Shown here piece by piece: positions 18,376 through 57,332 of a stretch of 63,814 nt of DNA. The notes under the pieces are model-generated. The model was not told the DNA's origin and searched no databases. It was given only the letters and a program-made list of their open reading frames with translations. Made by a program: the position numbers and the translations under genes. How positions within the stretch are numbered: position 1 is the first letter of the stretch; every line of letters begins with the position of its first letter. This stretch comes from Muribaculaceae bacterium (GTDB lineage Bacteria > Spirochaetota > Spirochaetia > Sphaerochaetales > Sphaerochaetaceae): contig CAVFNE010000002.1 in assembly GCA_963623755.1 (NCBI GenBank), forward strand, positions 1 through 63,814. Reading direction: 5' to 3'.

Positions 18376-18564
18376 TTATTCCTGAAATGTTATACCTGTG
18401 GAATTAAGGGTAGCAAGAGCGTTGTATGCCTTCTCATAAACTCCTTTTGAGGAACAAACCGCGACGGATTGAGTCATAGACTGCCAGTAGTCTGTTGTTA
18501 TTTCCTTCTCTGCTTTGTCTACGGCAACAATTGAGTCATTCTTCAACTCTCCGTCCTTTTTCAT
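18376..18564 (-). pseudogene. Truncated relic of a third tandem lipoprotein paralogue (N-terminal part only, no signal peptide)
   Basis: ..DKAEKEITTDYWQSMTQ..KGVYEKAYNALATLN aligns by eye with CEKDRSEEVIAAYSDFIT..TRAYNALLEL of 19356..19952. It is only about 60 codons long and has no lipobox. Confidence 0.4.
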
Positions 18565-18683
18565 AAGATAAGTTAACCTGGATTGGATAATAATAAGAGA
18601 TGTGTCGGATTTCAGAGAATATCGAATTGATGAGATCCTGCGCCGGAAACGTAAAAAGGGCCCCGTTTTGCGCCTTTATCTGC

Positions 18684-19349: not shown

Positions 19350-19355
19350 TTCATC

Positions 19356-19952
19356 CTATTTATCTGCATTGAGAAGTCTCAGCTCCACGCTCATGCCGTC
19401 GACTGAAGCTGACAAAAAAGAGTTGCTGCTTTTGTCTGTTGTGTATGAAACATCTTTAAGCTGTGTTCCCTGTAAAATGAGAGAGCACGAAGTATAGCTT
19501 ATATATTCAGCACTCTCGTGTTTTGTAAGCCTTCCCGACAGCGTGATGGTACCTATCAAGGTGTCGGAGTAGTAGGTATATGAGAATACGATTTTTACAT
19601 TATCTGCTTCGATCTCGATATTCGAGACATTCCGCTTTCCTTTTATTGTCCCCTCTGCAGATATTATGCTGTCTACAGTTATGACATAATCATCGGTTAT
19701 TTCTCGAAATGCACTTTCGACGTTTTTGGTTGACGGCATAATGGAGGAGGAGAATGTCTTATCTACATATCCGATATTGCTCGTTATCTCCGGAGTGAGC
19801 TCCAGAAGCGCGTTATACGCTCTTGTCTGTCCTGCCGAGGATGTAATGAAGTCGCTGTAAGCTGCGATAACCTCCTCACTCCTGTCCTTCTCACATGATG
19901 GGAAGAACACAATCAGGAGGACTGATAAGAGTACAATTAAAGTCTTTCTCAT
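19356..19952 (-). CDS. Lipoprotein, paralogous family member
   Basis: Signal plus lipobox (IVFFPSC); C-terminus LILQGTQLKDVSYTTD..VELRLLN. Confidence 0.7.
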   Translation of the reverse strand: MRKTLIVLLSVLLIVFFPSCEKDRSEEVIAAYSDFITSSAGQTRAYNALLELTPEITSNIGYVDKTFSSSIMPSTKNVESAFREITDDYVITVDSIISAEGTIKGKRNVSNIEIEADNVKIVFSYTYYSDTLIGTITLSGRLTKHESAEYISYTSCSLILQGTQLKDVSYTTDKSSNSFLSASVDGMSVELRLLNADK

Positions 19953-20026
19953 TTATTCCTCTTTTTCTATTCTACATGGCAGAGTTGAATTATTAAACAT
20001 ATTTTTTACATACGCAGTTCAATCTT

Positions 20027-21367
20027 TCAACAAGAAGAATCTGGAAGGGAAAAACGGGTGTATTTCTTCATTTTTACTATCACATATATCATTGTCAGTG
20101 CCTCCGTCAGCGGCATACTCCACCATATGGAGGATGGGGTGAAGACGAGGGGGAGAGCAATAATGAGAGCGCCACTTATGACAAGGCCTCTCATGACAGA
20201 TACTATAAAGGAAGTTTTCGGCTTCATTATGGCCTGAAAGTAGTAGGTCGAATAGATGTTGAACGGCAGGATGAGAAAAGAGAGAGCGTAGGTGCGGATG
20301 ATTGCCGGCGCTATGGCGAGAATCTCGGCTGTCGGGCTCATGAAAATCCTTATAAACATGTTTGGGACGGCCTCAGAGAGGGCAGTCCACAATACACTGA
20401 AAATCATTGCCGTAATGATGCTGTATTTCAGCGTCTCTTTAATCCTATTGCCGTTACCCGCTCCATAGTTTGTCGATATTATAGGCTGGGAAGCCTGACC
20501 GATGCTGTATGCAGAGCATTGCACAAACGTACTTATATTTATGATAGGACCGTAGACTGCAAGCTCTGAGGAGTCGAGGTATTTCATAATCTGTTTGTTG
20601 AAGAGGATTGTGAGTATGCCCATCGCAACGTCGATGAAGAAGGTTGAGAAACCTGTGACTGTAATGCGGCCGATCTGATGGAGGAACCTCCTGGGTTTTC
20701 TTATTCTCAGTGTATTCTCTTTGGAGAAGAAGTGGCTCAGCATTATGAGGAAAGAGAAAACACTCCCCATAGCTGTTGCGAGTCCTGCTCCGAAGAGTCC
20801 CATGGAGCACGGAAAGACAAAGAAATAGTCCCCAGCGATGTTAAATATGCCCCCGGCCATTACAGCTTTTGTAGCCAAAGATGGTGCTTTGTCGTTACGT
20901 AGGTATGCGGCAAGCATCTGGTTGAAGAGAAAGACAGGAAGGACGAATCTGATAGGCCTCATATAGTTTTCGGCAAGAGGAAGTAGTTTTTCGTCGGCGC
21001 CGAAGAATGTGAGAATACTGTCCTCGAAGAGAAAGTAGAGAAGTGTCAAAATAAGAGAAAGGAAGATTGAGCCGATGATGGATGATGTGAAATATTCGTT
21101 CTCGTTTCCTTCTTTTCCATTGTTAGTGCCTCTTTTGAGGGAGAATATGACGCTTCCTCCTATCCCCATCAAGAGGCCCAGCGAATAGATGATGTTCCAT
21201 ACAGGCGCAACGACTGCGAGGGCGGCACTACCGTCCGGGCCCTGGTACTGCCCGACCATCGCCATATCTACAACGCCGTATATTGATGATATAAGAGCAC
21301 TTCCGAATGCTGATGAAAGATACTTCAGATAAAGTCCTTTGATGTCGTCTTTCAAAAGGTTTTCCAT
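20027..21367 (-). CDS. MATE-family efflux transporter
   Basis: 12-TM profile and MATE-like duplicated halves. An AAGGAG SD lies 7 nt before the ATG at 21367, so the track start at 21388 is probably too long. Confidence 0.88.
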   Translation of the reverse strand: MENLLKDDIKGLYLKYLSSAFGSALISSIYGVVDMAMVGQYQGPDGSAALAVVAPVWNIIYSLGLLMGIGGSVIFSLKRGTNNGKEGNENEYFTSSIIGSIFLSLILTLLYFLFEDSILTFFGADEKLLPLAENYMRPIRFVLPVFLFNQMLAAYLRNDKAPSLATKAVMAGGIFNIAGDYFFVFPCSMGLFGAGLATAMGSVFSFLIMLSHFFSKENTLRIRKPRRFLHQIGRITVTGFSTFFIDVAMGILTILFNKQIMKYLDSSELAVYGPIINISTFVQCSAYSIGQASQPIISTNYGAGNGNRIKETLKYSIITAMIFSVLWTALSEAVPNMFIRIFMSPTAEILAIAPAIIRTYALSFLILPFNIYSTYYFQAIMKPKTSFIVSVMRGLVISGALIIALPLVFTPSSIWWSMPLTEALTMIYVIVKMKKYTRFSLPDSSC

Positions 21368-29247: not shown

Positions 29248-32200
29248 GTGTACGATTTCTTTTCTCCACTTGATGAAATAAAAAAGATTCCTTCTCAGAA
29301 GGCCGAGAAAAATATTCTTGAGAGCTATGATTATCTCTCGAATGATTTCTCTTCGATAGAGAAAGTGATGAGACAGTACAACCCTCTTGAGCTTATAAAG
29401 CTTTCGCTCTGGGATGAGAGGAAAGTCCTCAGGGAGAAAAAGAAAGACCAGAGGAAGAATGCATCTACAGTTCTTATGCCTGTTGTCCTCCAATCGGTGC
29501 TTCTCTCTTCCTATTTCACAGGATATGGAAGTAAAAGAAGTATAAGCGAAAAGGACTGGGCCAGACTTAAGGCCATAATCGATGATGTTCTGAGAAGAGT
29601 TATCAGGATAATCGAAAATAAGAGTGCATTGTTTATGGCTGACGGGGAGAAAACGAGAAGGGAAGGAGAGACTTACAGAAGGGTAATATCCTCCTATCTT
29701 TTACCTCCCGTCGTCACAACAGAGAGCCTGAGAAAAGATATGACGATGCTCTCCTCTCTTTTTGAAGAGAAGTGGCCGTCACTTGCAATTAATGACACAG
29801 ATGTATCTACTTATGTTATTAATATCGACAACATTGCCTCAAAGAGTCTGAAGGGAATAGACGATTTATGCCTGCGTGTTCAGAGCTACAGCGATGAATT
29901 TAATCTCGCTCGTGCCCAGAAGAAAGATGAGCTATCAGGAAAGAGCGAAGACGAAATCTACCGTATAATCACAAAGGAAAACCGGTGGGAGGGAAGAGCT
30001 GAAAAGCTCATAGGAGAGCGTGACGGCTTCGACTACTACACTCTTGATAAGCTTACCTCTCTCAGTGCGGATGATTTCAAACCCTTCACTGCTGGGGCTG
30101 GGTCACTCGATATAATATCACTATTGAAGCTTGGTTATTGGCCTGCAATGCGTTTCCCGTTTTTCGCCCTCGACGGAAAACTCTATACATTTATCGGAAA
30201 GCATATCCCTCGTTTTATTGCGCTTTCCTCGTCCTTTTCGAGGCGTGAGGCATCTCTTAAAGATGTTTCGGCTATATTCTTCCGCACGGGAATCGACACA
30301 TACACATACGACGGCAATGCAATTGATATATCTGTACTCCCGTCATACTACGACACGAATATCTTTCTCTCCCCATCCTCTCTGACAGAGATTGAGACGG
30401 AGAGATGTGAAGAGCTCTCTCTTAAGGCATGTTATGGCCACAAAAGGCTTATTGTAGACCCTGACGGGGAAGAAGACATGAAAAACGAAGGAGACTCCGT
30501 CCTGATGATTTCGTCTGTTTTCATGGCTGATGCTGCAAGAAACAGAAATTGTAAACACGAGCTTATTAAATCTTTACTGGGAGATTTGGAACTCCCCGAA
30601 AAGACAAGTGAATACAATGTAATAGACGAAGATGAGATTGTAAATGATAATCCCTCTCCCGTAGATGACGATGATGATATGATAAGCGACGAGTATGAGT
30701 ATGACTCGTCTGACGGAGACAGCGATGTGCTCTTTGACAATGAAGTGGATGAACTTCCCCCCGAATATGAGAAAAAGGTTGTCGATATAAAGAAGGAAGA
30801 GGAGAAGTATGCCCTTACCGATGAGATAATCGCTAAAGAAGAGAAGAAGAGTGAAGAAGAGGAAAAGTACACTCTCGATTTTGATGACGATATATTCGAT
30901 GACAGCGAAGAAGAGGAAAAACTTGACGATATAGGGGAGAAGGAAGACGACGAATACTATATCGAAGAGGAGAACGAGGAGCAGAGGGAAGAAGAGAAAG
31001 TCTTTGATGACGAAGACTCAAAAGAGGACGATAATGGCGGGCAGCTGGACTTCTTCGACCTTCTGGATGAAGATGAGGTTGACGATAAGCCTTCCACTGA
31101 GGAAAGTGTGAAAGAAGACGACGGGGAGAACGATTATGATGCGGAGGAAACAGAAGAACTCGTACCTCAATCTCCCCTGATGCCTCTCTTTGATGACGAC
31201 AAAGCGGACGAAGAAGAGCAAGAGGAAAGGCCTCTCGACGAAGAAATAGAGAAAGAGGACGAAGAGGAATTTGTTCAAGAAGAAGAGAAAGCTGAAGAAC
31301 TCGATAATGAAGACCTGGATAATCTTCCTCAAATAGATGAAGAAAAAACAGAAGAGCCCGCTGATGTAGAGCAGAGTAATCTTTCTCCACTGGACGAAAA
31401 TCTTTTGAATGAAGAAGAAACAGTATCTGATGACGACAACTTGGACAGTGATGACTCTTTCACACTTCCCTCTCTTGAAGATAACGAGGAAGAATATGTT
31501 TCATCTACTCCTCAGAAAGAGTCAAAGAATACAACAGCAGATTGGCTCAGTGCATTTATGGGCCTCGATGATGATGTGGCTGAGGAAGATTATTCTTCTC
31601 AGGAGGAATCTCCTTTTATTGAGGAGCACTCTCTTGATATAACCAATAGCGAAAACGATGAGGAAACAGAAAAAGAAGCTTCTCCAGACTCTATAGAGGA
31701 CAAAGAAGATGCTTCTTTGGAAAATGCTGAAGTCCCCATAGAAGAGGATATTCCTCAAAACGCTGTAGAGAATTCAGGGGAAGAAGACAGAGTGGAGCCT
31801 GATGGGGATACCCCACTTGAAGAAGAGCATCAGATTCTCACTATGGAAGAGCTTGAGGGGGAGGATGAAGTACTTCCTCTTGTCTCGGATGATAAGGACG
31901 AATATATTCCATACAATGGAATTGTCAGGGAGATTTATCAGACTCTGACATCATCTTCCGTCTTTGCTGGATTTTTAGATGATTCGGGAGTACAGACTGC
32001 AGAGGAATTGGAGGAAGTTATCCACAACAGCTGGGAGAAGTCGAAAAACGAAGGAAAGGATAAACTTTTCAATATAGCTCAATACTCGATTTCCGTCATA
32101 ATTTCACATAACCTCGTGAAGGATGAATTGAGAAAATCGGAGCTCTACAATAATGCCGGCGGTATCATGTACTCCTACGACCGCGATAAGTGGACGGCAA

Positions 32201-32343
32201 TCCTACTCTTCATTGATGACTCCTTCTCCCTCTCGGATGCCTATGAAAAGACTCTGACAAAGGAGAGCTTCTCTCCCTCCGACTGGAAGCGGGTTACATA
32301 CATCGGCGAGCAGATTAAGAATAAGGCTTCGAAAAATGGATAA
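29248..32343 (+). CDS. Large hypothetical protein with a roughly 400-aa poly-acidic (D/E-rich) central region
   Basis: A 1031-codon ORF with a GTG start 11 nt after the aminotransferase stop, overlapping the next gene by 8 bp. The region around 30620-31900 is dominated by GAA/GAG/GAT codons. The N- and C-terminal regions have normal composition. Confidence 0.7.
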   Translation: MYDFFSPLDEIKKIPSQKAEKNILESYDYLSNDFSSIEKVMRQYNPLELIKLSLWDERKVLREKKKDQRKNASTVLMPVVLQSVLLSSYFTGYGSKRSISEKDWARLKAIIDDVLRRVIRIIENKSALFMADGEKTRREGETYRRVISSYLLPPVVTTESLRKDMTMLSSLFEEKWPSLAINDTDVSTYVINIDNIASKSLKGIDDLCLRVQSYSDEFNLARAQKKDELSGKSEDEIYRIITKENRWEGRAEKLIGERDGFDYYTLDKLTSLSADDFKPFTAGAGSLDIISLLKLGYWPAMRFPFFALDGKLYTFIGKHIPRFIALSSSFSRREASLKDVSAIFFRTGIDTYTYDGNAIDISVLPSYYDTNIFLSPSSLTEIETERCEELSLKACYGHKRLIVDPDGEEDMKNEGDSVLMISSVFMADAARNRNCKHELIKSLLGDLELPEKTSEYNVIDEDEIVNDNPSPVDDDDDMISDEYEYDSSDGDSDVLFDNEVDELPPEYEKKVVDIKKEEEKYALTDEIIAKEEKKSEEEEKYTLDFDDDIFDDSEEEEKLDDIGEKEDDEYYIEEENEEQREEEKVFDDEDSKEDDNGGQLDFFDLLDEDEVDDKPSTEESVKEDDGENDYDAEETEELVPQSPLMPLFDDDKADEEEQEERPLDEEIEKEDEEEFVQEEEKAEELDNEDLDNLPQIDEEKTEEPADVEQSNLSPLDENLLNEEETVSDDDNLDSDDSFTLPSLEDNEEEYVSSTPQKESKNTTADWLSAFMGLDDDVAEEDYSSQEESPFIEEHSLDITNSENDEETEKEASPDSIEDKEDASLENAEVPIEEDIPQNAVENSGEEDRVEPDGDTPLEEEHQILTMEELEGEDEVLPLVSDDKDEYIPYNGIVREIYQTLTSSSVFAGFLDDSGVQTAEELEEVIHNSWEKSKNEGKDKLFNIAQYSISVIISHNLVKDELRKSELYNNAGGIMYSYDRDKWTAILLFIDDSFSLSDAYEKTLTKESFSPSDWKRVTYIGEQIKNKASKNG

Positions 32344-42003: not shown

Positions 42004-42331
42004 GGTAAATCAGTCGACGCTCTTGATGGCTTTGTCCTCTCGGATGACAAGGCTATCCAACGCTCAATCAAAGAAGTGGAATAAGGCTGTTTTTATCACC
42101 ATCAGGCGAAATATTCATGGATGCAGACTGGATTGTCAGAGCGAAATAGATGGAGGCAATATAATCTTTTTTCTGCTTTTCAAATTCCACGCACTTGGAT
42201 ATCAAGCTGATTTTATCAGATAGATTGTAAATCTCCCCCTTGCCCTCGGTTTCTCTTTCTAAAAGGCTTATAAGCTCAGGTATTGTCTCTGTAATATGGG
42301 TTTGCGAAATCCCTGTTCACGAGGTATCTTT

Positions 42332-42838
42332 TTATTTTCTTCCTATCTTTGTAAAGCCTACAAGAGAATAGAATTCATCGAAGTGGGTGACTATCCCCTT
42401 CATAATAAGGCCGTTGAGGGCGTAGTTGAAATCCTCTATTTTGTATTCTCCATCTTTTGTTCCTTCCTTTATTTTGCTCAACTGCTCGGTGTAAGACGGC
42501 AGCTTTGAACTTAGGTAAAGGATAAGTGTAATCTCTCCCTCTCCCAGATTCTCTGTTGTTTCATTGAAAAGTGGAAGAAGGAGTGCTCTCAATATGATGG
42601 TTTTGTCAACCTTTCCACTCTCGGAGTATGCGGCTGCGGTTTTCTTCATCTCGGCGTAGTTGAAAATCTCATAAATCTTATATTGCATCTGTTTGAAGGA
42701 TAAACACTTCTTGATGTCCTTAATAAAACTTTCATCTTTAAGGTCCAAATCTGCTCCGCTTTCTTTAAGAAGCTTTATAACAAGCTTTGAGTACTTTTCT
42801 CTTTCTTTCTCGTATCTTTTTGCATTTGGGCCCGGCAT
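42332..42838 (-). CDS. Hypothetical protein downstream of the SNF2 helicase
   Basis: 168-codon ORF 60 bp after the helicase stop. I recognise no motif. The same frame reopens after two stops (see findings). Confidence 0.45.
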   Translation of the reverse strand: MPGPNAKRYEKEREKYSKLVIKLLKESGADLDLKDESFIKDIKKCLSFKQMQYKIYEIFNYAEMKKTAAAYSESGKVDKTIILRALLLPLFNETTENLGEGEITLILYLSSKLPSYTEQLSKIKEGTKDGEYKIEDFNYALNGLIMKGIVTHFDEFYSLVGFTKIGRK

Positions 42839-42898
42839 ATTTATCTCCTCGAATAATTATAGTGTCATGCGGTAATTAATGCGTCAATTGTTTTCTCT

Positions 42899-45800
42899 TT
42901 ATTCAATATTTGAAATCGATAACAGCTCCATAAGATCCTCTTTCGATAGTGATGAGAGTGAAGTGTTTTCTGTTGTGACAATCTCATCGGCCAGATTCTT
43001 CTTTGCCTCCTGAAGCTTTACGATATTCTCCTCTATCGTATTCTGGGCAATCATCTTGTAGACGGTTACCTGTCTCTTCTGTCCTATTCTGTGAGCTCTG
43101 TCCGTCGCCTGATTCTCCACTGCTGTGTTCCACCACGGGTCGTAGTGTATGACGATATCTGCTCCGGTGAGATTAAGTCCCGTTCCTCCCGCCTTGAGCG
43201 AGATAAGAAAGAGCGGGGTGTCACCGTTATTGAATGCATCAACCATCTCCAGTCTCTTTGCTGAGGGTGTATCACCTGTTATTTTATAGTACTTGATGTT
43301 GTTCTCGTTCAAGTCGCTTTCAAGAAGTTCAAGCATTGATGTGAACTGTGAAAAAAGAAGTATCCGGTGGCCTCCGTCGATGGCTGCGTTGATGAGGTCC
43401 ATCACTGCTTCTCTCTTTGCTGAGCCTCCCTTATAGTCCTTGTAGAGAAGAGCCGGATCACAGCAGATTTGTCTGATTTTCGTAAGCTCGGCAAGAATTT
43501 CGATTTTCTTTTCGTTATAGTTGCCGTATTTCTTGAGCATACCTTTGGTCTTTGCCACCTCGGCTGTATAGAGCTTGAGCTGTTCGCCTTCAAGAGGTGT
43601 CACTCTCACTTCTTCGGTTTTTTCCGGAAGTTCTTTCAATACATCTGTTTTGAGCCGTCTTAGAATGAATGGGCCGGTAAGCTTTTTGAGCTTGAGGGCT
43701 GCTTCCTTATCTGCGTTCTTTTCAATTGGAGATGATATCTCCCTCTTGAATACCTCCTGTGAGAATAAGAACCCGGGCATGAGGTACTCGAAGATTGACC
43801 AGAGCTCGGAGAGTCTGTTCTCTATCGGGGTCCCCGTGAGCGCAATACGGCTCGATGCCCTTACAGCCCTGACTGATTTTGCTGCTGCAGTGGTATGATT
43901 CTTGATGAATTGAGCCTCATCTATTATCTCTATATCGAAAGAAATACCTTCGTAGTGGGCTATATCACGTTTTAAGAGATCATATGATGTGACAAGTATA
44001 TCCCACGCATTGTTGTTTTTGATTATTTCGGCTCTTTCCTTTGCCGTCCCTGTGACTGTTACGGCATTGAGTGTGGGTGTGAATTTTTTCACCTCCGCTT
44101 TCCAGTTGTAGACAAGAGATGCAGGTGTAACTATCAGAGTGTGCATCGGCTTTCCTTCTTCCTTCAGTGCTAGAAGTAGAGAGAGTGCCTGTATTGTTTT
44201 TCCCAACCCCATGTCATCTGCCAATATCCCGCCGAATCCATGCTCGATGAGCACTCTTAGCCATCTGTATCCGTCCTTTTGATAGCTACGCATTGTTTCT
44301 TCCATTGAGGAAGGAACAACATAGTCGGATTCGTTTATCCTTTCAAATTCGTCGATGAGTTTTTTTAATCTCTCTCCACCTTCATAGTTTATTCCGTTCT
44401 GCCCCTTCAATATCTGGTCAAGGTACAGAGCCCGGTAAAGTGGGAGGTTCATCTTCCCTGAAGCAAATTCCTTTATGGAGAGTCCGGAGTCAAGAAAGAG
44501 GGATGTCAGGGAGTCAAGGTTGACGTTCGATAGTGATATAAAGTCCCCGCTTTTGAGACGGTGGTATTTCTTCTGGTTCTTGTAGGATTGGAGAATCTCA
44601 ACCAGTTCTTCGATTGAGAAACCCTTGAGATCAAGTTTCAAATCGAGAATGCCGGCGTTATCCTCATCGATATCAAAAAAGCCGGTAATCTCGGGCATCT
44701 TTCTAACGTTCATGTTCTTCACGCTGTCGGAAATATTAACTTCTCCCAGCTCGGCAAGGGCCTCAAGACCATTTGTCAGAAATGAATAGATTCCACCTAT
44801 ATTGTTGTTCCTGATGCCCCATAATCCACCTTCGAAGTAGTCACGGGGGAAAATCTCCAGAAGGTCTCTGTCAATATCGTCACCGTAGCTTTTCAGCTCT
44901 GGGGTTTCCTTTGCGACAAATGTTCCGAAATAGCCGTTTCTTGGATATACTTGGTATTCCTTACCTTTATATGAAAGAACGGTCTTACATGTGATTGCCC
45001 ATTTACCGCTGTCGATGTAGAAAATCGTTTTCGGGGCCTCAGTCAATATGCCGCCGAGAGCGTTCTCTGCTCTGTCGTCAATTCTGCCGTAACGCCTTAA
45101 ATCTGGAAGCAGACGCTGATAGAAGTTATCTATATATGAGAGTCCGATGGTGAATGAGAAATTGCCACTCTCGTCTGCTGTGGATGCAAGCGCAAATGCA
45201 CTCCCGAGTTTTTTTCTTTCTGTTCTGTTGAAACAGCCGTCTTCAACCCAATAGATGTAGTCCGGACTCTTCCATCGTCCGGAAATCTTTCCCGAGACTG
45301 TTATTCCAACAAGCTTTTCCCTCAGCTTTTTCTCTTCGATTTTCATGTCGAATGAGGGCTCGCTGTCTTTTAAGACGAGGTTGACACCGTTATAGATAAC
45401 TCCTGTATCTTTCATCACAGAGTAGAAGTCGTCGATGAAAAGTGTAAAGGGCAGATTGTCCCTGAGCTCGATTTTTTTGTAATAGTCGTCGATATTGTTT
45501 GCATAACAGTAGCTTCCCGCGGCTTTTATGAGCTTTATGATAGTCTTTGCCCTTTCTGTCAGATTCTGTTTTGCGAAATTAACGCCGTACTCCCCGCTTA
45601 CGTAGGTAAATTTCGAGTCTAAATAGTCGGAGTAGAACTTTTCTATGTTACGTATCTTATAGTACCTTCCGTTTGTGGTTTTCGCCCTCAGGATGATGGT
45701 GTTATTTTCCAGAATAGGCTCTATGTCGATATCCTCAAGCGGCTCGTCGATGCTCTCTTTTATGAGATTCTTTCTGTCCTTACGGAAATTGGAGAGAAGA

Positions 45801-46588
45801 AGGGAGGCCTTTTCATCAGTAAAATCTGTTATGTCCCTGTTTTTCTTAAGGTATGATATAAGTGAGAGCAGGGTTGCAGTTTTGTGGACGCAGAGTTCGA
45901 TATATCCTTTATCTGTGACTGTGTCGTAAGCGCATACAGGCTTGATGGGGTTTGTGCGGTAGTACCAGGAGTATCTGGCGTCAGTGCATGTAATCTTTTT
46001 TATGCCGCTGTTCGAGAGTTCGACATCGACGTTGGCGCGTTCATTGCCTGATGTGACTGAAGTGCTGTAAACTAGGACCTTTTCTCCATCCTTTGTCTCA
46101 ATCTTGGCCGATTTCATATATACGCAACCATTATCAAATATATTTTTTGCTTTTCTGTATGTTTCGACTGTAGGTTTGTAGATGTCGAGCGAATTACCGA
46201 ATGAAATGTAGTGCGGCTCTCCATCGTCATCTATGTGCAGCTTCATCATGCTTTTTGCTACCAAAGTTGACTTCTTTTTATTTTTTTTCTGTTCTACAGG
46301 CTTTTTGTTTTCTTCTTCTGTAAGCACTTCGCCTCTTTCCTTTTCTATTTTGTAAAGAAGCGCTGCTGTATGTTTACAGTATTTCTTCGGACAGGGACAG
46401 GTAGAGGATAACTGGACCAGAGTATTACTGTTCATTTTTGCCTTGACAGTGTAGATTTTGGACGCGTCGTCGACATGAACGCTGATGATGGAGCCGTTAT
46501 CTGTATAGTCAGTTACCAATCCTGCTTTAAATAGTTGTTTTCCACGGTTCAAGAGAGTGGAGGTAAATAGTTCTTCCCAATTTGACAT
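42899..46588 (-). CDS. SWIM-zinc-finger SNF2-family helicase (YwqA/RapA-like)
   Basis: N-terminal SWIM CxCx..CxH (CPCPKKYCKHTAAL), SNF2 motifs ILADDMGLGKT, DEAQFIKN, LTGTPIEN, and helicase-C QATDRAHRIGQ. The likely start is MSNWEELF at 46588. Confidence 0.92.
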   Translation of the reverse strand: MSNWEELFTSTLLNRGKQLFKAGLVTDYTDNGSIISVHVDDASKIYTVKAKMNSNTLVQLSSTCPCPKKYCKHTAALLYKIEKERGEVLTEEENKKPVEQKKNKKKSTLVAKSMMKLHIDDDGEPHYISFGNSLDIYKPTVETYRKAKNIFDNGCVYMKSAKIETKDGEKVLVYSTSVTSGNERANVDVELSNSGIKKITCTDARYSWYYRTNPIKPVCAYDTVTDKGYIELCVHKTATLLSLISYLKKNRDITDFTDEKASLLLSNFRKDRKNLIKESIDEPLEDIDIEPILENNTIILRAKTTNGRYYKIRNIEKFYSDYLDSKFTYVSGEYGVNFAKQNLTERAKTIIKLIKAAGSYCYANNIDDYYKKIELRDNLPFTLFIDDFYSVMKDTGVIYNGVNLVLKDSEPSFDMKIEEKKLREKLVGITVSGKISGRWKSPDYIYWVEDGCFNRTERKKLGSAFALASTADESGNFSFTIGLSYIDNFYQRLLPDLRRYGRIDDRAENALGGILTEAPKTIFYIDSGKWAITCKTVLSYKGKEYQVYPRNGYFGTFVAKETPELKSYGDDIDRDLLEIFPRDYFEGGLWGIRNNNIGGIYSFLTNGLEALAELGEVNISDSVKNMNVRKMPEITGFFDIDEDNAGILDLKLDLKGFSIEELVEILQSYKNQKKYHRLKSGDFISLSNVNLDSLTSLFLDSGLSIKEFASGKMNLPLYRALYLDQILKGQNGINYEGGERLKKLIDEFERINESDYVVPSSMEETMRSYQKDGYRWLRVLIEHGFGGILADDMGLGKTIQALSLLLALKEEGKPMHTLIVTPASLVYNWKAEVKKFTPTLNAVTVTGTAKERAEIIKNNNAWDILVTSYDLLKRDIAHYEGISFDIEIIDEAQFIKNHTTAAAKSVRAVRASSRIALTGTPIENRLSELWSIFEYLMPGFLFSQEVFKREISSPIEKNADKEAALKLKKLTGPFILRRLKTDVLKELPEKTEEVRVTPLEGEQLKLYTAEVAKTKGMLKKYGNYNEKKIEILAELTKIRQICCDPALLYKDYKGGSAKREAVMDLINAAIDGGHRILLFSQFTSMLELLESDLNENNIKYYKITGDTPSAKRLEMVDAFNNGDTPLFLISLKAGGTGLNLTGADIVIHYDPWWNTAVENQATDRAHRIGQKRQVTVYKMIAQNTIEENIVKLQEAKKNLADEIVTTENTSLSSLSKEDLMELLSISNIE

Positions 46589-47106
46589 GACTATATAGTA
46601 TAGAAGAATACAGATGTAGACCATACATTATGGCGATATTTCATCCTCCAGCCCCAGGAAATTGGTAGTTTCACTCTTCTGCCCTGTTTGTATTGAAAAG
46701 AAGACAGGATTCTTTCTCCTCTGCATTTTTCTGCCCCCGATTTTTAATGAAAACGGCTCCCTTTTTTGACAAAATCTCGGATTATTGCGCTTTATTAATA
46801 TGTTTCTGTATTTCGACCTGTATTTTTTCTTCTTTTACTTTCCCTCTTTAAATGATAGGGAAGATGACTTTCTGCTCTTTACCTGTAAGTCCTTTCTGCT
46901 GGGAAATGTAATTATTGTCAGAGAGCATTTATCCGTCACGGGTGATGAGTCTCTCTATGGAGAGCATACCGTAGAAGCGGGGCTTTCTTTACTCTTCATC
47001 AGCAATCACGTTGAAAGCGGTGAATATGTCAAAGAGCTGAGCAAAGCAAAGCAGAAAGGGGACAGAATCCCACTCAGAAGGGGACGATAAGAAGAGTGGG
47101 GAAAGA

Positions 47107-48453
47107 ATGATGATATCAAAGAAAGTAAATAACAGAGAGACTTATCAGAAAGTAAGACAGGATATTCTTGAGCCTTACTCTAACCCTGACCTTTATACGA
47201 AGGTAGATGCGCCTGGAGGAAATGTGTATGTATTCAAATCATATTACGAAGACTATATCCAAGACAGGCTGAATAGTGATTTAAAAAACAAAATCGAGAA
47301 AAATATAAGAGGCGCAGAATCGCTTGCCCGAAAAGGCCATATTGTTTACATCCTTCCTGAGAAGATAGTAATTATGGGAGAGATATATAACGGGGAAATA
47401 TCTGACTCAATAGTTAATGGCTACTTGACAGAGTTTAAGGAGCTAACCTCTTTCACATATTCACAATTTAAAAAACAGCTAAAGAATGGGCTTAGAAAAG
47501 CAGATGTCGTGTATATGCGATTGAGCAGAAATGAAATTATCGAGAAAGGAAAAACAAGAAGTATATTTGATCTAATAAATGGCCAAACCTCAGGTCGCAA
47601 CAAATATGAGGGTAAGATGGTTATTGTCTCATCGGATGGGGAAGAGTTTGTTTCTTATGTAATAAAAAATGGAACTCCTAATGAAGTTCCCTTTTCCAGG
47701 CTGGGCGACCTGCCCCAACCTGAGTGTAGTGTCGTCGAGAGAAATGAATCTGTCAAGAGCTTTAAAAAAGAAGCACAAAGAAAAGCTGAGGCTGTTCTTT
47801 TTAAGAACAAAATTGAGGAAGGCTTCAATAAACAGATTGATAGTATCTTAGAGGGAGATATCGGAATTAAGGATAAGACAATTGTTTTTTCTGATTCTAC
47901 ACCAAATGTTTTTATATCGTTGGGGCTTGATGATTTGACAGTCGAAATGTATATAGACAAGTTAGCAAGGGGATTGCTTCTAGATGAGTCTGTCTCTCAT
48001 GGACATTCAAGTGGGTTGTCCAAGAATATAGTCAAAGCTATCTGCAACGAATTAGGTAATCCGCTTGCAGTATTTGATTCCGCTTCTGTGAAAGGCCGAC
48101 TTGTTGCCCTTTATGATATATCTGACATGAATGGGGATAGTGTTATTGTTATTGTTTCGCCTAAGGCCAGAAAGAGCAATGCTGTTGAGATAAACCTTAT
48201 CTCGTCTATTTACGGAAAGGGAAACGGGTTAGGATTTAAGGCCTGGATTAACAAACGTCTTTTAAGATATGTTGATAATACAAGAGAAAAGAGCCTTGCG
48301 CTTAGGCTCCAATTGCCATCAACCAAGACTCTTTACGTAGATAATGTACTCACAAAATCTCAACTTGTCAACAAAAATACGGACTTATATTTCTATGACT
48401 TTAAGACCAAAACCGGAAATAAGTCATCAAAACTGGAGGGGGAGAGTGTTTAA
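47107..48453 (+). CDS. Hypothetical two-module protein: N-terminal PD-(D/E)xK (CdiA-CT tRNase-like) motif plus a C-terminal module resembling nuclease-like domains of phage/ICE polyvalent proteins
   Basis: GGGGA SD. AESLARKGHIVYILPE..ISDSIVNGYLTEFKELTS gives D100..E109-x-K111, followed by ..LRKADVVYMRL. The second module is SHGHSSGLSKNIVKAICNELGNPLAVFDS..RLVALYDISDMNGDSVIVIVSPK..EINLISSIYGKG. Confidence 0.55.
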   Translation: MMISKKVNNRETYQKVRQDILEPYSNPDLYTKVDAPGGNVYVFKSYYEDYIQDRLNSDLKNKIEKNIRGAESLARKGHIVYILPEKIVIMGEIYNGEISDSIVNGYLTEFKELTSFTYSQFKKQLKNGLRKADVVYMRLSRNEIIEKGKTRSIFDLINGQTSGRNKYEGKMVIVSSDGEEFVSYVIKNGTPNEVPFSRLGDLPQPECSVVERNESVKSFKKEAQRKAEAVLFKNKIEEGFNKQIDSILEGDIGIKDKTIVFSDSTPNVFISLGLDDLTVEMYIDKLARGLLLDESVSHGHSSGLSKNIVKAICNELGNPLAVFDSASVKGRLVALYDISDMNGDSVIVIVSPKARKSNAVEINLISSIYGKGNGLGFKAWINKRLLRYVDNTREKSLALRLQLPSTKTLYVDNVLTKSQLVNKNTDLYFYDFKTKTGNKSSKLEGESV

Positions 48454-49657
48454 AAAGTTGTTTTTAGAGATTAAGGTTGTTCTAGAGAATAAAGATGCAC
48501 TTATTGCCCTCTGTGGTTATGAATGCGTTGAGGAAATCTTTGATTTAAACGGTGTTTTCTTTTTTTGCTTGAAAGGCGCATCCTTTCTCGTCAAATATAC
48601 GGTGGGGGAGACTGATGCAGAAAAAAAAGAGAAAGCAGAGCAATTCCACATTCGGGAGATTATTTCAATAAAAATAAGCATCCTCCCTATTAGTTCCGCC
48701 TTATTTTTGTGTGGAACGACTGAAGATGCTTTCCTCCCTAAGCTGTTATCAAGCGCATTTTCTGTCAATGAATTAAAGATAGAGGAGGCAGATGAAATCA
48801 GAGGCTGGGATAAAGAAAAAGAGATAAAAGAAAGATCTGTGCTCTGCTTCAATGAAAAAGAGCTTCAGGGCTGTTCTTTGTCTTCCCATAATCTGAATAG
48901 GTTTTCCTCTTTCTTCAACAGCATCCCCGTTGATATAGCTGAAGATTCAAGAGCTAATGAGAATGCAGAAGAGATATATAGAGATATAGATAAGATTACG
49001 AATGTAGAAACAGGAGACGATGTTCAATTAGTGAACGCTGCTTTCGACAGGATTGTAAGGCATAGGGATTATGATCCCAGGCTTGTTGGAGGCCTCAAAG
49101 AACTCTATAAGAGAGCAATATTCCTCTTTGACGAAAAGCCTGATTATGATACGTCTAGAGCTGTCGGAACGCTTCTCAAAAAGAAGAGCAATGTCGGTTT
49201 TTTCAGTAACTATGGTATAAAGATAAGACTAGACGGCTTAGACTATTTTGTTCGTTATACCACACAGAATATTAAAAACAGAAATGACAGAATTACTGGA
49301 AGACAATTTCATTCAGAGCAGTTAAGCTCAACAAAAATAAGCAACCTCCTAATTTCATCCTCTTCAATTTTGAGGGCAGGAAGGAGTGTTGCCTCTGACT
49401 ATAAACAAGCATCACTTTTTAAGATTGTGAACAAATATATAAGTTTCCGCAATCAATGCTTTGGACGAGAGAGCGGGAGAGATATTGATAATGAAGATGA
49501 TTCCCAGATGAGAGAAAAAAAAGATGTCGAAACTTCTCTAAATAAAAAAATAAATCAGCCTTCCCTAGAGTATACCTGGGTGGCGTTTGGTTTATATCAA
49601 ACAGCTGAGTCTAACGAAAAAAATGTGAGAATTTCAGTGACGCAGATAAAGCATTAA
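48446..49657 (+). CDS. Hypothetical protein, translationally coupled partner of 47107..48453
   Basis: GTG at 48446 is preceded by GGAGGGGGAG and overlaps the upstream stop by 8 bp (GTGTTTAA). I see no recognisable catalytic motif. The track ORF starts further upstream at 48344, inside the previous gene. Confidence 0.5.
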   Translation: MFKKLFLEIKVVLENKDALIALCGYECVEEIFDLNGVFFFCLKGASFLVKYTVGETDAEKKEKAEQFHIREIISIKISILPISSALFLCGTTEDAFLPKLLSSAFSVNELKIEEADEIRGWDKEKEIKERSVLCFNEKELQGCSLSSHNLNRFSSFFNSIPVDIAEDSRANENAEEIYRDIDKITNVETGDDVQLVNAAFDRIVRHRDYDPRLVGGLKELYKRAIFLFDEKPDYDTSRAVGTLLKKKSNVGFFSNYGIKIRLDGLDYFVRYTTQNIKNRNDRITGRQFHSEQLSSTKISNLLISSSSILRAGRSVASDYKQASLFKIVNKYISFRNQCFGRESGRDIDNEDDSQMREKKDVETSLNKKINQPSLEYTWVAFGLYQTAESNEKNVRISVTQIKH

Positions 49658-49709
49658 GTGTAGATTCTGACAAAAATGAAGGTGTAGAGTGACAAATAAG
49701 GAGGAGTGT

Positions 49710-51014
49710 ATGCTGTATGTAGTTGTATTGTTATTCTTTTATTTACTTATATTTATACAGGATGTGTTTTTGTCCTCCGTCGTAATTCCGGCTCTTCTTA
49801 TTTTCCTTTTGTACCTCGTGCGGCACAAAACAAAACTGAGCCTTGCTCTTTTATTCATGATTCTGCTCTTCTCTATATTTTCTTCCTCCCTTGAGAAAAC
49901 CCGTCTTGATATACCAATCTCTATTGACGAAGTAACAGCTCTTTATGGAGAAGTGGTGACAGAACCCAACAGGAAGAAGAATAGATACTCAGGCTACAAT
50001 ATAATGCTTGAGAGTGTGGTGAATAAGAGGGGGGATTTTTTCTCATCTTTGGGGAAGGTATATATCATCGCACCAGATTTGGGAGTAACCCTGGGTGATA
50101 AGATCTATGTCAAAGGTGTGATGAACGATGAGTATTTCCTCTCGTCTGAGGGCTCTGTTATAAAGAGAAATAACCTCTCCCGGGTCAGGCGTAAGATAAA
50201 CTCTTTCTTTTTGAAATCTCTTCCTCCGGGTGATGAGGGGAATATGGTGTCGTTGCTTTTGACGGGCACCACGCTCGACGGCGGGAGTACGCTTCAAGAT
50301 AACGTACGCTCTCTAGGCTTGAGTCATCTTTTATCTCTCTCGGGAATGCACCTGGGCTTCATCAGTGCAATTGTTTTTCCATTATTGAGGCTTTTTCTTT
50401 CCAGAAAGAAAGCTGTAGGCGCTAAGAACATAATACTCTTTACTTTTGTGTACACTGCAGGATTTAGACCGAGTCTTATGCGTTCTATGATTTTTGTCAT
50501 TCTTATTCCTCTCTTCGGCCTTGAGTGCAGTTTTATTCTCTCCCTTGTCGCGCTTATCAAAATATTTCCTTTCTATCTCGATGAAGTTGCAACTATTTTG
50601 AGCTTCACATCCCTTGCAGGAATCCTCCTCTTCTCATTTCAGCAGGAGAGCATAAAAAAAAGTAATATTCCTCTTGTCTCTTCCATTGGTTCCTCCGTTA
50701 TTACAAGTGTTGCAGCAACCCTTTCCAGTGCTCCTGTGGTGTTTAATATATTCGGTTCATGGCAGCCTTATTCATTTTTGTTTTCGATAGTCGGTATGCC
50801 ACTCATTACGGTGCTTTTTGTTATGGTTATAGTAAGATTCATTATTCCTAAATCGGATTTAATAATCGGTGTAATAATAGAAATAATAAAGCAAAGCGGA
50901 TATATAGGGGAATATATTCCACTCACTGAGAGTTTTTCCCTCTACTATCCCATGCTGGGTGTGTTTCTTTTCTCTGTTGGGATTATATCGACAATTGGAA
51001 GAAGAAGGAGATAG
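49710..51014 (+). CDS. comEC: ComEC/Rec2-family membrane channel protein (short form, no metallo-beta-lactamase domain)
   Basis: AAGGAGG SD before the ATG at 49710, an N-terminal OB-like DUF4131 region, the LSLSGMHLGF competence motif, and many TM helices. Confidence 0.8.
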   Translation: MLYVVVLLFFYLLIFIQDVFLSSVVIPALLIFLLYLVRHKTKLSLALLFMILLFSIFSSSLEKTRLDIPISIDEVTALYGEVVTEPNRKKNRYSGYNIMLESVVNKRGDFFSSLGKVYIIAPDLGVTLGDKIYVKGVMNDEYFLSSEGSVIKRNNLSRVRRKINSFFLKSLPPGDEGNMVSLLLTGTTLDGGSTLQDNVRSLGLSHLLSLSGMHLGFISAIVFPLLRLFLSRKKAVGAKNIILFTFVYTAGFRPSLMRSMIFVILIPLFGLECSFILSLVALIKIFPFYLDEVATILSFTSLAGILLFSFQQESIKKSNIPLVSSIGSSVITSVAATLSSAPVVFNIFGSWQPYSFLFSIVGMPLITVLFVMVIVRFIIPKSDLIIGVIIEIIKQSGYIGEYIPLTESFSLYYPMLGVFLFSVGIISTIGRRRR

Positions 51015-54675: not shown

Positions 54676-55540
54676 CAGTATTCTTCGTGTCCTGTGCCGT
54701 AACAAGCGAATAGGGCGGAATGTTTTCCTTAATCCATGTGTTCGAGCCTATGGTTGAGTCATGACCTATTGTTATGTCTCCCAAGAGTGTGGCATTGGCA
54801 TAGATTGTTACGTTGTCCTCAATTGTCGGATGGCGTTTGCTGCCCCTGAGAAGCATTCCACAGCCGTCCTTCGGGAATGACAGGGCTCCGAGTGTGACGC
54901 CCTGATAGATTTTGACGTTGTTTCCTATAACTGAAGTCTCTCCTATGACGACACCGGTACCGTGGTCGATGAAGAAATTTTCCCCCACTGTTGCTCCCGG
55001 GTGTATGTCGATACCGGTATCTGAATGGATGAGCTCGTTAATCATCCTCGGAATGAGAGGTAAGCCCTGAGTAAAGAGAAAGTGTGCGATACGATGGGCA
55101 AGGATAGCTTTGAAGCCTGGGTAGGTGAGGATTATCTCCCTCACTGATTTTGCCGCCGGGTCGCCTTCATATCCGGCCCTTCCGTCTTTTTTCAACATTT
55201 CTCTTATATGTGGTAGTTCCTCCAGAAGGGATGATGTTATTCTCTCTGATTTCTCTTGTGCTTCTTTTAGATCTATCAGGGTTGTCCTGTATGCAAGTAA
55301 AGCCTGGAAGAAGAGGATATTTGATGCCTTGTCCATATGACGTGATACGACAGCCGTCAGCATCCCCCTGCTGTTTATCTCCTCATAGTCGGGAAAGAGA
55401 AGGATGGTAAACTCCTCCATCATCTCTTTTACATCTTCTCTGGAAGGAAGCTGCAGGTTATGTATTTCATCGCTTTCTGCATTAAGACGGGAAAAGGTAG
55501 ATAGATAGTTTTCAATAAAAGGAGAAGAATCGAATTTCAT
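54638..55540 (-). CDS. cysE: Serine O-acetyltransferase
   Basis: SAT N-terminal helical domain with the GDPAA motif, and C-terminal hexapeptide repeats (IGETSVIGNNVKIYQGVTLG..). Confidence 0.87.
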   Translation of the reverse strand: MKFDSSPFIENYLSTFSRLNAESDEIHNLQLPSREDVKEMMEEFTILLFPDYEEINSRGMLTAVVSRHMDKASNILFFQALLAYRTTLIDLKEAQEKSERITSSLLEELPHIREMLKKDGRAGYEGDPAAKSVREIILTYPGFKAILAHRIAHFLFTQGLPLIPRMINELIHSDTGIDIHPGATVGENFFIDHGTGVVIGETSVIGNNVKIYQGVTLGALSFPKDGCGMLLRGSKRHPTIEDNVTIYANATLLGDITIGHDSTIGSNTWIKENIPPYSLVTAQDTKNTVRSRKQEGEKQK

Positions 55541-56100
55541 GGCCCTATTATAATCAAAACACCGCTCTTGATGCCAGCATTGGGAAAAATGTTTTTAAAC
55601 ATGATAATTCCAAACTCTGTATTAAAATAATCCTCCGATAGTCTGAAATGATATAAAATGCAGTGCCTTTTGATGCTTTCGCTTTGCTGTCAAATAAATT
55701 GTGAGCATCAAATAACAGGCTTGAGGCATTTCTAGAGTATTATGAGAAAATCGAGAGCGGGCAGTTTTCCGGCCTTAAAGCATAGATACATGCCCGAGTT
55801 TGGTCTTTTGTGGACAGAGAACTCTCGTTTGAGTATTCCCCTTAATCTTCACTCTCAGAGTCGGAGTATTGAGCGAAGGGGGAAAACGGGGTATTGAATG
55901 TTGAATAATGATTATCGCGCAGAATTAACACTGGGAAAAGGCGGTATGTGTCTATGTTTGCTTAGTTTTGATTAATAGTAACATCTTAAATGTAACTTGT
56001 TATTGTATAATAAATTAGTTGATACAAAAGTGCCATTGACAACCTTTCGGGGGGCTATAATACCAAAAATTATGAAGGAAATACTCAATAGGAGATAATT

Positions 56101-56784
56101 ATGAAGAAATTTTTAATTGCATTATTCGCGGTATTTCTTCTTGTGTCTTTCACAAGCTGTGATACACAGAAGAAAATCGATGAGGCTGTCGAAGAGGCTG
56201 TCGATAAGGCTTTAGCAGAACAAATGGAAACCATGCTTTCCATAAAGGATTCCTGGGCTGTATCATATCGATACGATGATCACACTGCTAACGTGGATGA
56301 AGGTAAATATGATTTATCTCTTTACAGCTCTGATGCTACAATCAAAGATTGTATAATTCGAATTCTGGCAGATAGTACCAACACCCTCTATAACAGTAAT
56401 TATTGGACTATAAAATCAGCATCGGGAACTGTCTCGATTGTAGAGTCTGAAGAAGAAAGCGGTGACAATGAAAGAACCTTGACACTGACAGGCGTCAGTA
56501 TCGAAGCAACATATGAGGGTAAAGACGTTTCATTGACGCTCGATGGTGAAATCTACCGTAAATTAATCGTGGTAGATGAGGATAAGCGTATATTTGATGT
56601 GGAAAGAAAAATGACAGGTTTTAAGGAGAATGGTACTCAATATAAGGATATCGAACTATCGTACAGGTCATCAGGCGACCACGATTTGGGGACAGATTAT
56701 TCATTACTTACATTTAAAAAGGCAGTATGTGATGGCAAGGATATCGATGTTGACTTTATGAATACATATTTTGGACGTCAATGA
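56101..56784 (+). CDS. Lipoprotein, paralogous family member
   Basis: Lipobox (LLVSFTSC) and AGGAG SD. C-terminus ..GTQYKDIELSYRS..DIDVDFMNTYF is related to 18684..19952. Confidence 0.7.
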   Translation: MKKFLIALFAVFLLVSFTSCDTQKKIDEAVEEAVDKALAEQMETMLSIKDSWAVSYRYDDHTANVDEGKYDLSLYSSDATIKDCIIRILADSTNTLYNSNYWTIKSASGTVSIVESEEESGDNERTLTLTGVSIEATYEGKDVSLTLDGEIYRKLIVVDEDKRIFDVERKMTGFKENGTQYKDIELSYRSSGDHDLGTDYSLLTFKKAVCDGKDIDVDFMNTYFGRQ

Positions 56785-57332
56785 GGATATTAATGTTCTT
56801 CCATGCCATTCATTGATATGAACTTGTCTTTATGAATGCATATTTTGGAGGCAGTGTGGCTAAATAATGCTGGCACTGCGCTTTTATTAAATGGAGACTG
56901 AATAACAATTTGCCGTAGTGGTCTCCGGAAAAATAGATGGGGCTCGGAGTGAGCCCCGTTTCAATCGTCGTTTCCCTGGTCGTAGGAATCGTGGTGATTG
57001 CACTTTGTCGACTAAATCTATGGGTCTCTTTTGATAAAGAGAGAGAAGGTCGAACTTATGTGTATAACAGAGTATAACTGGTAGTGGCCGTGTTAAGGCC
57101 ACAATCTGAGGATGTGTTGGTTTTGTGTTAGAGTTCTTGTCTTCAATAGACCTTATGAAGAGAGGTTTTATCAGAGAGGGGAAGACACTGAAGAGTGGAA
57201 AATCACTGTTGATGAGCCAAAAAAATTGGAGAAGCTTTAAAGCTGAGAGACAGTACTGTCTGTTATTCAATTTTTGTCAATTGAACAGAAAACGGGCCTA
57301 GTTTTTGATGAAAGGAGCTATTTGTTGGCCCT

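Follow-up and report, generated by a model that had tools for sequence, protein, structure and literature searches.

Polyvalent proteins of phages and conjugative elements combine several effector modules on one polypeptide in an extensively shuffled order, and small neighboring open reading frames (ORFs) with single polyvalent modules have been described as well (Iyer et al., 2017; PMC5512222). Typical of these proteins is MuF_C, a phage BECR domain (PBECR; BECR for barnase/EndoU/ColE5-D/RelE) and predicted RNase, and their vocabulary also includes LPD3, which has no known function (PMC5512222). A tRNase domain of the type found in CdiA-CT(II) of Burkholderia pseudomallei 1026b serves as toxin domain of phage MuF toxins, about 89% of whose genes are followed by a candidate immunity ORF (Jamet et al., 2017; PMC5576092). 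CdiA-CT(II) 1026b itself (4G6V; PF18451/cd13442) is a Mg-dependent PD-(D/E)xK tRNase with the catalytic residues E187, D214, D223, and K242 (PMC9086364). Here we describe a two-gene cassette in a DNA stretch of 63,814 nt, in the following called the window, from a record named Muribaculaceae bacterium that is placed in the Sphaerochaetaceae by GTDB (GCA_963623755.1, contig CAVFNE010000002.1). Gene 1 (47107-48453, + strand) is an intact ORF of 448 aa consisting of an N-terminal module (N-module), a linker, a MuF_C module and a disordered tail, and its AlphaFold2 (AF2) model has two confident domains at a mean predicted local distance difference test score (pLDDT) of 71. Gene 2 (48446-49657, + strand) encodes 403 aa from a GTG start, with a truncated LPD3 unit, a full LPD3 unit and a unique tail, and is identical to the NCBI product P0011; neither gene has internal stops. 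With regard to identity and origin, the cassette is very probably a small, split and chromosomally lodged effector of the polyvalent type known from phages and conjugative elements, whereas for the full statement, which includes its inferred function, we see about an even chance.

The C-terminal half of gene 1 is a MuF_C (PBECR) module and as such a predicted RNase of the BECR fold (aa ~240-422; 47824-48372, + strand). Pfam MuF_C (PF18819) matches aa 298-393 (47998-48285, + strand) with E = 9.9e-20 and 71 bits at a gathering cut-off of 27.6, and the region also matches the large family PHROG 616. A Foldseek search of the gene 1 model against BFVD yielded 14 matches (E ≤ 1e-3), namely phage polyvalent, MuF_C and CDI-toxin-like proteins; for the MuF_C region these are phage polyvalent MuF_C-containing proteins with E-values down to 7e-9. 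Moreover, the MuF_C half retrieves by tblastn a giant “LPD5 domain-containing” protein in 186 Stx-type phage records with about 29% identity and E ~1e-6. The BECR fold has an N-terminal helix and a sheet of 4-5 strands. In the model the region forms a helix followed by four strands (pLDDT ~76-86), and the RelE-type RNase BrnT, matched weakly and locally, was all that Foldseek returned for it from PDB (prob 0.75, E = 0.21). Active PBECR domains have a His that lies within the N-terminal helix or beside it, together with a Ser/Thr in strand 4 (PMC5512222), and at the level of sequence and model gene 1 corresponds to this active type, as HGH 298-300 precedes the helix 306-315 and SSIYG 366-370 ends the strand 359-367. 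Both motifs are kept in homologs. An earlier note on this DNA, made from the sequence alone, had called the second module barnase/EndoU/RelE-like and of the polyvalent kind, which is borne out by the Pfam match (E = 1e-19) and by the classification of MuF_C as PBECR in PMC5512222.

Between the two modules of gene 1 lies a linker motif, RLGDLPQP-x2-(N/S)(I/V)-x3-5-ESVK (aa 198-217; 47698-47757, + strand), after which the chain is disordered up to aa ~235, with a pLDDT below 50 over aa 203-235. Solo N-module proteins contain tandem copies of the motif, two copies are present in the 2044-aa polyvalent protein P0052, which has no N-module, and with an (E/D)SV(K/N) ending it sits at module borders in gene 1, P0003, P0005-7, P0023, and P0052. 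It could be a processing or docking site. The C-terminal tail of gene 1 (48373-48450, + strand) is hypervariable and disordered (pLDDT ~30) and contains the ribosome-binding site of gene 2.

The N-module (aa 1-197; 47107-47697, + strand) consists of a small N-terminal subdomain and a core of the PD-(D/E)xK type (aa 57-139; 47275-47523, + strand) with N66, E85, D100, E109, and K111, as judged from a profile search, hhalign and AF2. Gene 1 aa 1-215 have no direct match in Pfam, NCBIfam, PADLOC or PDB sequences, and a whole-gene-1 profile found nothing in PDB. An exhaustive profile search of 1.84e9 proteins gave a family of only 40 representative clusters; the nearest relatives are proteins of 278-371 aa that consist of the N-module alone, and the clusters include giant proteins (703-3534 aa) with an embedded N-module. 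Five distant members (P0043, P0044, P0045, P0047, P0053) exceed the gathering score of Pfam CdiA_C (PF18451), further distant small matches nearly reach this threshold, and in the same library the N-module profile retrieves CdiA_C-positive proteins at E-values of 1e-6 to 1e-4. The best PDB match of P0047 is 4g6v_A, the CdiA-CT of B. pseudomallei 1026b, and the N-module profile itself aligns by hhalign to the 4G6V segment over 94 columns (prob 88%, E = 3e-6), with the family residues Glu66, D100, and E109 opposite E187, D214, and D223. Within the family K111 is invariant, and D100, P84, and position 66, which is Glu in the family, are nearly so. The AF2 core (pLDDT 80-93) runs H57-74, b80-82, b101-103, b106-113, H118-131, b134-139, where strand b101-103 begins at D100 and b106-113 bears E109-x-K111; in this model the predicted order of elements is that of a canonical PD-(D/E)xK core. 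Furthermore, one of the Foldseek matches in BFVD is a “CDI toxin-like protein” (E = 4.9e-4). Together, the profile evidence identifies the N-module as a predicted divergent PD-(D/E)xK nuclease module of the CdiA-CT(Bp1026b)/cd13442 superfamily, for which the word tRNase may be used only as an analogy. The catalytic set of the window protein is incomplete, since D100, E109, and K111 are present and the helix Glu is replaced by Asn66. The earlier note had proposed a PD-(D/E)xK domain like that of CdiA-CT tRNase toxins at this place; the relationship stands at the level of the family profile, with the catalytic residues in register, whereas the window protein itself gave no direct match in Pfam, PDB sequences or Foldseek-PDB and has Asn in place of Glu. 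Two kinds of PDB match were rejected: ribokinase and eIF1A in the Foldseek search of the gene 1 model are noise, and the sole match of the N-module profile hidden Markov model (HMM) to PDB sequences is an artifact of summed weak repeats in a designed WD40 protein.

Gene 2, which the earlier note had left without a nameable motif, does have one. Its aa 170-276 (48953-49273, + strand) match Pfam LPD3 (PF18798) with 29.2 bits at a gathering cut-off of 27, which is a marginal pass, and they lie within a complete LPD3 unit (aa ~130-335; 48833-49450, + strand) that is covered by five homologs with 47-58% identity (P0012-P0016), all of which have a precomputed PF18798 assignment. In front of it lies a truncated and divergent first copy of the unit (aa ~1-115; 48446-48790, + strand), which keeps FLVKYT...QFHIRE...SIKIS. 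This copy was found by internal BLASTP (E = 0.026, offset of 221 aa) and by tblastn of gene 2 aa 42-108 against a solo LPD3 gene of the related locus L003 (E = 3e-8), and a 45-nt direct repeat (48665-48709 and 49328-49372, 76% identical) has the same spacing of 663 nt, i.e., 221 aa, which is also the length of stand-alone LPD3 proteins. These comparisons establish for gene 2 a predicted composition of one truncated and one complete LPD3 unit. The LPD3 profile found no solved relative in PDB, the AF2 model of gene 2 is unusable (pLDDT 38.6), searches of gene 2 against NCBIfam and PADLOC gave nothing useful, and an exact look-up of its product returned no entry.

All three module types recur in related proteins, both in giant fusions and alone. 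N-module, MuF_C and LPD3 are fused in shuffled orders in proteins of 0.7-3.5 thousand aa, also together with ART-PolyVal and PBECR5: P0019 (3534 aa) has the order N-module, LPD3, ART-PolyVal, MuF_C, P0017 the order LPD3, MuF_C, N-module, P0034 contains a CdiA_C-like module, ART, PBECR5 and MuF_C, and P0022, P0037, and P0052 represent further combinations of the cassette module types. A distant N-module relative, P0053, is a fusion of Phage_Mu_F and CdiA_C. As solo genes, an N-module is found between HAD and comEC, an LPD3 between infA and glyA, and a MuF_C beside uvrD, and N-modules also occur at unrelated loci. In L006 an N-module ORF and an ORF with ART-PolyVal and LPD3 are one gene split by a frameshift. 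That gene lies behind an ABC transporter (L006 8791-10954, frameshift at EWLKAP/NGKNTK), and its N-module, ART-PolyVal and LPD3 counterpart in L002 (10001-11116) is truncated after AVYHT. We also observed small strain-variable MuF_C or LPD3 ORFs and fragments (78, 163, 202, and 285 aa) in housekeeping contexts of relatives, namely at a nitroreductase locus (L028, L029, L030) and at the uvrD locus (L025-L027).

The cassette occupies a variable chromosomal site. Its two genes are part of a 7.7-kb insert (42004-49688) between the gene of a HAD hydrolase, which ends at 42003, and comEC, which starts at 49689. Relatives were located by a comEC alignment scan of genome contigs, onto which the window proteins were then mapped; they are metagenome-assembled genomes of gut Sphaerochaetaceae and Spirochaetaceae, several of them with mislabeled titles (the records of L012, L013, and L014 are titled Faecalibacterium, Clostridium or Comamonas, which is evidently wrong). 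At the junction, the window has a 168-aa gene, a helicase gene, gene 1 and gene 2; HAD directly abuts comEC in L013, L015, L016, and L017; an N-module-only gene lies there in L001, L010, and L008; and L012 has a different insert of 3.6 kb with Lnt and a 510-aa protein. The variable presence that the earlier note had suggested looking for is hence seen as an empty site in four species, the N-module alone in three and other cargo in one. Gene 1, gene 2 and comEC are arranged in the same way in L007, another assembly of this species, with a gene 1 copy of 99% identity. None of the related loci examined contains the helicase or the 168-aa protein. Regarding L012, its 510-aa protein (8141-9673) upstream of comEC contains a KHGHG helix motif and later an EFK...KADV segment; that it represents the same two module types in reversed order is only suggestive (PBECR1 E = 0.067, hhalign E = 0.07).

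Also by composition the cassette differs from its surroundings. Both genes have 37.4% GC and a GC content at third codon positions (GC3) of 0.36, compared to a window mean of 44.2% (sd 2.8%, 1.3-kb windows) and a GC3 of 0.43-0.51 in neighbor genes, and they rank in the lowest 1% of 1.3-kb windows by GC. The value resembles that of L002 and L006 (~35%), whose N-module is 56% identical, and of L025 (~37%), whose MuF_C is 52% identical. The composition of the cassette is hence atypical for the host and matches that of lower-GC lineages with the closest module relatives. The two genes are tightly joined, as the GTG of gene 2 (48446-48448) overlaps the region of the gene 1 stop TAA (48451-48453; GTGTTTAA) and a GGAGG at 48435-48439 lies 6 nt before this GTG. 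The frame of gene 2 is open from ATG 48344 (437 aa) or GTG 48446 (403 aa); NCBI product P0011 starts at the latter, and in the near-identical assembly L007 gene 2 is called from ATG 48395, giving 420 aa. In these points the earlier note was right: it had placed the two genes between a divergent SWIM/SNF2 helicase and comEC, in agreement with ORFs and Pfam domains, had seen them as more A/T-rich than their flanks and as overlapping at GTG 48446, and had quoted the motifs E64-K-N66, LPE 83-85, D100, E109-F-K111, HGH 298-300, and SSIYGK 366-371, all of which are found at these positions.

Signs of selection come from the solo genes of relatives. For the N-module gene of L001 and L010 dN/dS is 0.21 (core 0.16) at a dS of 0.87, with a dS of 0.78 and an omega of 0.11 for the adjacent comEC; the gene is therefore a maintained one that diverged along with its flank. 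The solo LPD3 genes of L003 (10001-10666) and L004 (962-1630) are 70% identical with an omega of 0.28 and a dS of 0.76, although their flanking genes glyA and infA are 98.6-100% identical (dS 0.19 and 0.05), so that the dS of LPD3 is four times that of glyA. This points to allelic replacement or ancient polymorphism; the solo LPD3 genes are alleles of deep divergence within almost identical backgrounds, a pattern like that of conflict loci. Since purifying selection acts on the solo genes of both the N-module and LPD3, the cassette is not plain junk. Between the window and L007 there are 26 single-nucleotide polymorphisms (SNPs), and 16 of the 19 in the cassette fall within 267 nt (48375-48641), i.e., in the tail of gene 1 (5 SNPs) and the truncated LPD3 copy (11 SNPs), with about 6% local divergence that is mostly non-synonymous. 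There is no SNP in the N-module and almost none in the MuF_C core and in the complete LPD3 unit. A second cluster of seven SNPs lies in comEC at 50050-50352, and the clusters at the gene junction and in comEC look like recombination patches. In our reading the core of the cassette is functional and its junction is recombining or decaying.

How far the cassette resembles the described systems differs from case to case. With the polyvalent proteins of PMC5512222 it shares the vocabulary of MuF_C/PBECR and LPD3, with ART-PolyVal and PBECR5 appearing in its relatives, as well as the occurrence of several effector modules per polypeptide in extensively shuffled order, and the MuF_C half of gene 1 matches the giant virion protein of Stx phages. 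At least two effector-type domains per polypeptide mark a polyvalent protein, and in the cassette these are the N-module and MuF_C for gene 1 and one and a half LPD3 units for gene 2. Unlike those proteins, the cassette spreads no more than 2 and 1.5 modules over two ORFs, lacks a metallopeptidase, ArdC-N, MuF, portal, packaging or transfer context, and lies in a housekeeping chromosomal neighborhood of a gut spirochete, i.e., not on a phage or conjugative element beside virion or type IV secretion system genes. The PD-(D/E)xK module of the cassette is not found in the main text of PMC5512222. Compared to CdiA-CT(II) 1026b (4G6V), the family residues Glu66, D100, and E109 match E187, D214, and D223. 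However, the lysine of the canonical ExK is preserved in the N-module as K111, and in 4G6V its role falls to K242, which lies further downstream; moreover, the N-module has Asn66 for the helix Glu and a sub-threshold CdiA_C score, and it adds a conserved N-terminal subdomain (aa 10-55), a C-terminal beta-hairpin and the linker motif. The module is N-terminal in a protein of 448 aa, and neither a CdiA filament nor CdiB nor a CdiI-like gene is nearby, which sets the cassette apart from CdiBAI systems. With MuF polymorphic toxins (PMC5576092) there is a common pool of toxin domains, as illustrated by the Phage_Mu_F and CdiA_C fusion P0053, but gene 1 has no N-terminal MuF (PF04233), no prophage or remnant around it and no small downstream immunity candidate. 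Orphan toxin/immunity cassettes (Zhang et al., 2012, cited in PMC5512222) are similar in their small, fragmentary and strain-variable single-module ORFs, in deep allelic divergence within near-identical flanks and in truncated copies. They differ in that the modules here are scattered at unrelated housekeeping loci and do not form an array following a main toxin gene, that immunity genes are absent, and that a main locus is not seen in the window. The cassette would work like polyvalent, MuF and CdiA-CT systems without being a strict member of any of them, since a mobile-element context, a MuF domain and CdiA/CdiI are all missing and the CdiA_C score is below threshold. What is new here is the free-standing, split and chromosomal form with a PD-(D/E)xK subfamily missed by current models.

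If the reading as a polyvalent effector holds in full, the cassette would have been acquired or rebuilt by horizontal transfer together with module-level recombination. It would be expressed, probably co-transcribed with comEC, and gene 2 would be translationally coupled to gene 1. Gene 1 would act as an intracellular effector that cleaves nucleic acids, most likely RNA. Metal-independent BECR chemistry via His298/His300 and Ser366/367 would be expected of the MuF_C module, and of the N-module Mg-dependent PD-(D/E)xK chemistry via D100, E109, and K111, possibly weakened by Asn66. Gene 2 would be an accessory module of the same effector set and not a dedicated antitoxin, and the cassette as a whole would serve in conflict with invading elements or competitors.

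Several results weigh against this reading. Within ~15-20 kb on either side there is no integrase, phage, conjugation or tRNA gene, only housekeeping genes, as the earlier note had correctly remarked for mobile-element hallmarks, and a search for flanking repeats or att-like sites gave only low-complexity chance matches; therefore the route of transfer is unseen. By tblastn the N-module and the LPD3 unit have no BLAST-level relatives in cultured phage and plasmid records, and patterns of the close N-module clade and of the LPD3 unit were found in none of the IMG/VR viral contigs or metagenome contigs. Regarding the chemistry, position 66 is Glu in at least 90% of the family and Asn in the window protein and P0002, the window protein does not match Pfam CdiA_C even at E ≤ 1, Foldseek of the gene 1 model against PDB gave no significant match and no PD-(D/E)xK structure, and in the literature searched no experimental nuclease activity of MuF_C/PBECR was found. 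Finally, relatives are disrupted by the frameshift in L006, the truncation in L002 and as 78-aa fragments, which together with the truncated copy in gene 2 makes partial decay plausible.

Such decay is taken further by the view that the cassette is a non-functional relic, consisting of decaying pieces of one larger polyvalent gene, with the overlap and the ribosome-binding site being incidental. Gene 2 begins indeed with an N-terminally truncated divergent LPD3 copy, the mostly non-synonymous SNPs relative to L007 accumulate where gene 1 meets gene 2, a catalytic position is taken by Asn66, relatives elsewhere are frameshifted or truncated, and no delivery or partner genes are nearby. We nevertheless consider a relic unlikely, since two assemblies show both long ORFs (448 and 403 aa) without interruption, hardly any SNP falls in the N-module, the MuF_C core or the complete LPD3 unit, dN/dS is 0.16-0.21 for the orthologous solo N-module and 0.28 for solo LPD3, and the Shine-Dalgarno sequence of gene 2 is strong and ideally spaced. 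The earlier note had named as readings a possible anti-phage or anti-plasmid module, for which PADLOC gave no match, and a toxin/immunity pair, in which gene 1 would be a toxic double nuclease that is bound and neutralized by gene 2. The same modules occur alone elsewhere, there is no small immunity ORF and no trafficking domain, and therefore the proposal of a toxin/immunity pair is unsupported. N-module-only genes with the full E/D/E/K set leave no room for an immunity gene (e.g., in L001), solo LPD3 and solo MuF_C genes occur without their supposed partner, no secretion or trafficking domain and no match to a Pfam immunity family was found, and LPD3 is fused with the same nuclease modules in giant proteins, so gene 2 is not a small dedicated immunity protein. 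Despite the tight stop/start overlap with its strong ribosome-binding site, the classic toxin nature of CdiA-CT-type and BECR domains, the immunity candidates behind ~89% of MuF toxin genes (PMC5576092) and an accessory and variable locus, we regard such a pair as quite unlikely.

The neighborhood of the cassette allows two further explanations. All four genes lie in one 7.7-kb insert that is absent from related species, and the SNF2 helicase, the 168-aa protein and the nuclease/LPD3 pair might work jointly, in the roles of sensor, motor and effector, in an anti-phage or anti-plasmid island not described before; SNF2 helicases occur in Zorya, DISARM and Dpd, whose models the helicase matches generically, and nuclease effectors are common in defense systems. 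However, PADLOC-DB v2 assigned no family to gene 1 or gene 2 and the helicase scores far below family cut-offs, it has a host-like composition unlike the cassette and a common bacterial SWIM and SNF2_assoc architecture, and N-module genes hold the site in other species without a helicase, which makes an island of this kind very unlikely. The N-module could also be a competence-linked nuclease that is co-transcribed with comEC and processes incoming DNA for a ComEC without a metallo-beta-lactamase domain. The nuclease domain of ComEC presumably acts outside the cytoplasm, so a cytoplasmic N-module protein would not replace it, and the sequence shows neither a signal peptide nor a membrane segment. 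In four related species nothing lies upstream of the same short ComEC, and N-modules are also located at unrelated loci and inside giant polyvalent proteins. Therefore, this explanation appears extremely improbable, even though at least four species have an N-module gene directly upstream of comEC on the same strand with tight spacing, its dS is like that of comEC, and ComEC has only the DUF4131 and Competence domains.

If true, the reading of the cassette as a polyvalent effector would mean that polyvalent effector modules also live outside phages and conjugative elements and that purifying selection can maintain them as small, free-standing genes on the chromosomes of gut spirochetes. The polyvalent vocabulary would also gain a PD-(D/E)xK module overlooked by current Pfam models. 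One might go further and suppose that gut Sphaerochaetaceae domesticated the PD-(D/E)xK nuclease, BECR RNase and LPD3 modules that phages inject, as a novel type of immunity-free intracellular defense or exclusion system, to which we give only a slim chance. In that case the chromosomal, selection-maintained and strain-variable genes would encode latent RNases that are triggered or retargeted on invasion, with the RLGDLPQP...ESVK linker as a possible processing or docking site. The cassette is a hint of domestication and not a new class of system, and by itself it opens no long-standing question. As a compact pair of 448 and 403 aa it offers a handle on the predicted activities of MuF_C/PBECR and on the role of LPD3 that is easier to use than virion proteins of 3,000 aa.

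The remaining genes of the insert are transcribed divergently from the cassette. The helicase (42899-46624, - strand) has 1241 aa with SWIM, SNF2_assoc and SNF2 domains according to Pfam, and gave in PADLOC and NCBIfam only generic SNF2 matches far below family cut-offs. Its GC content of 0.437 is ordinary, which in view of the atypical cassette suggests separate histories. Downstream of it an ORF encodes a 168-aa protein (42332-42838, - strand) without a family match in Pfam, PADLOC, NCBIfam or PHROG searches. On the other side, comEC (49689-51014, + strand; 441 aa, DUF4131 and Competence in Pfam) starts 31 nt after gene 2, and no plus-strand terminator-like site was found in the gap between them. 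A scan for promoters and terminators stayed at chance level, and an Rfam search found nothing. In the window as well as in all relatives ComEC is short (~430-441 aa) and has no metallo-beta-lactamase domain. An intergenic 101-aa ORF at 46785-47090 was considered as a decayed older N-module on account of weak collinear BLASTP matches and was rejected, because hhalign gave no support and in an HMM shuffle test the forward frames were at or below chance. Elsewhere in the window, a 1031-aa ORF (29248-32343, + strand) amid housekeeping genes has no Pfam match at E ≤ 1e-5. Three further low-GC patches (<0.39) are located at ~4400-6100, ~18100-20100, and ~55200-57300, the last of which includes a lipoprotein-like ORF of 227 aa at 56101-56784.

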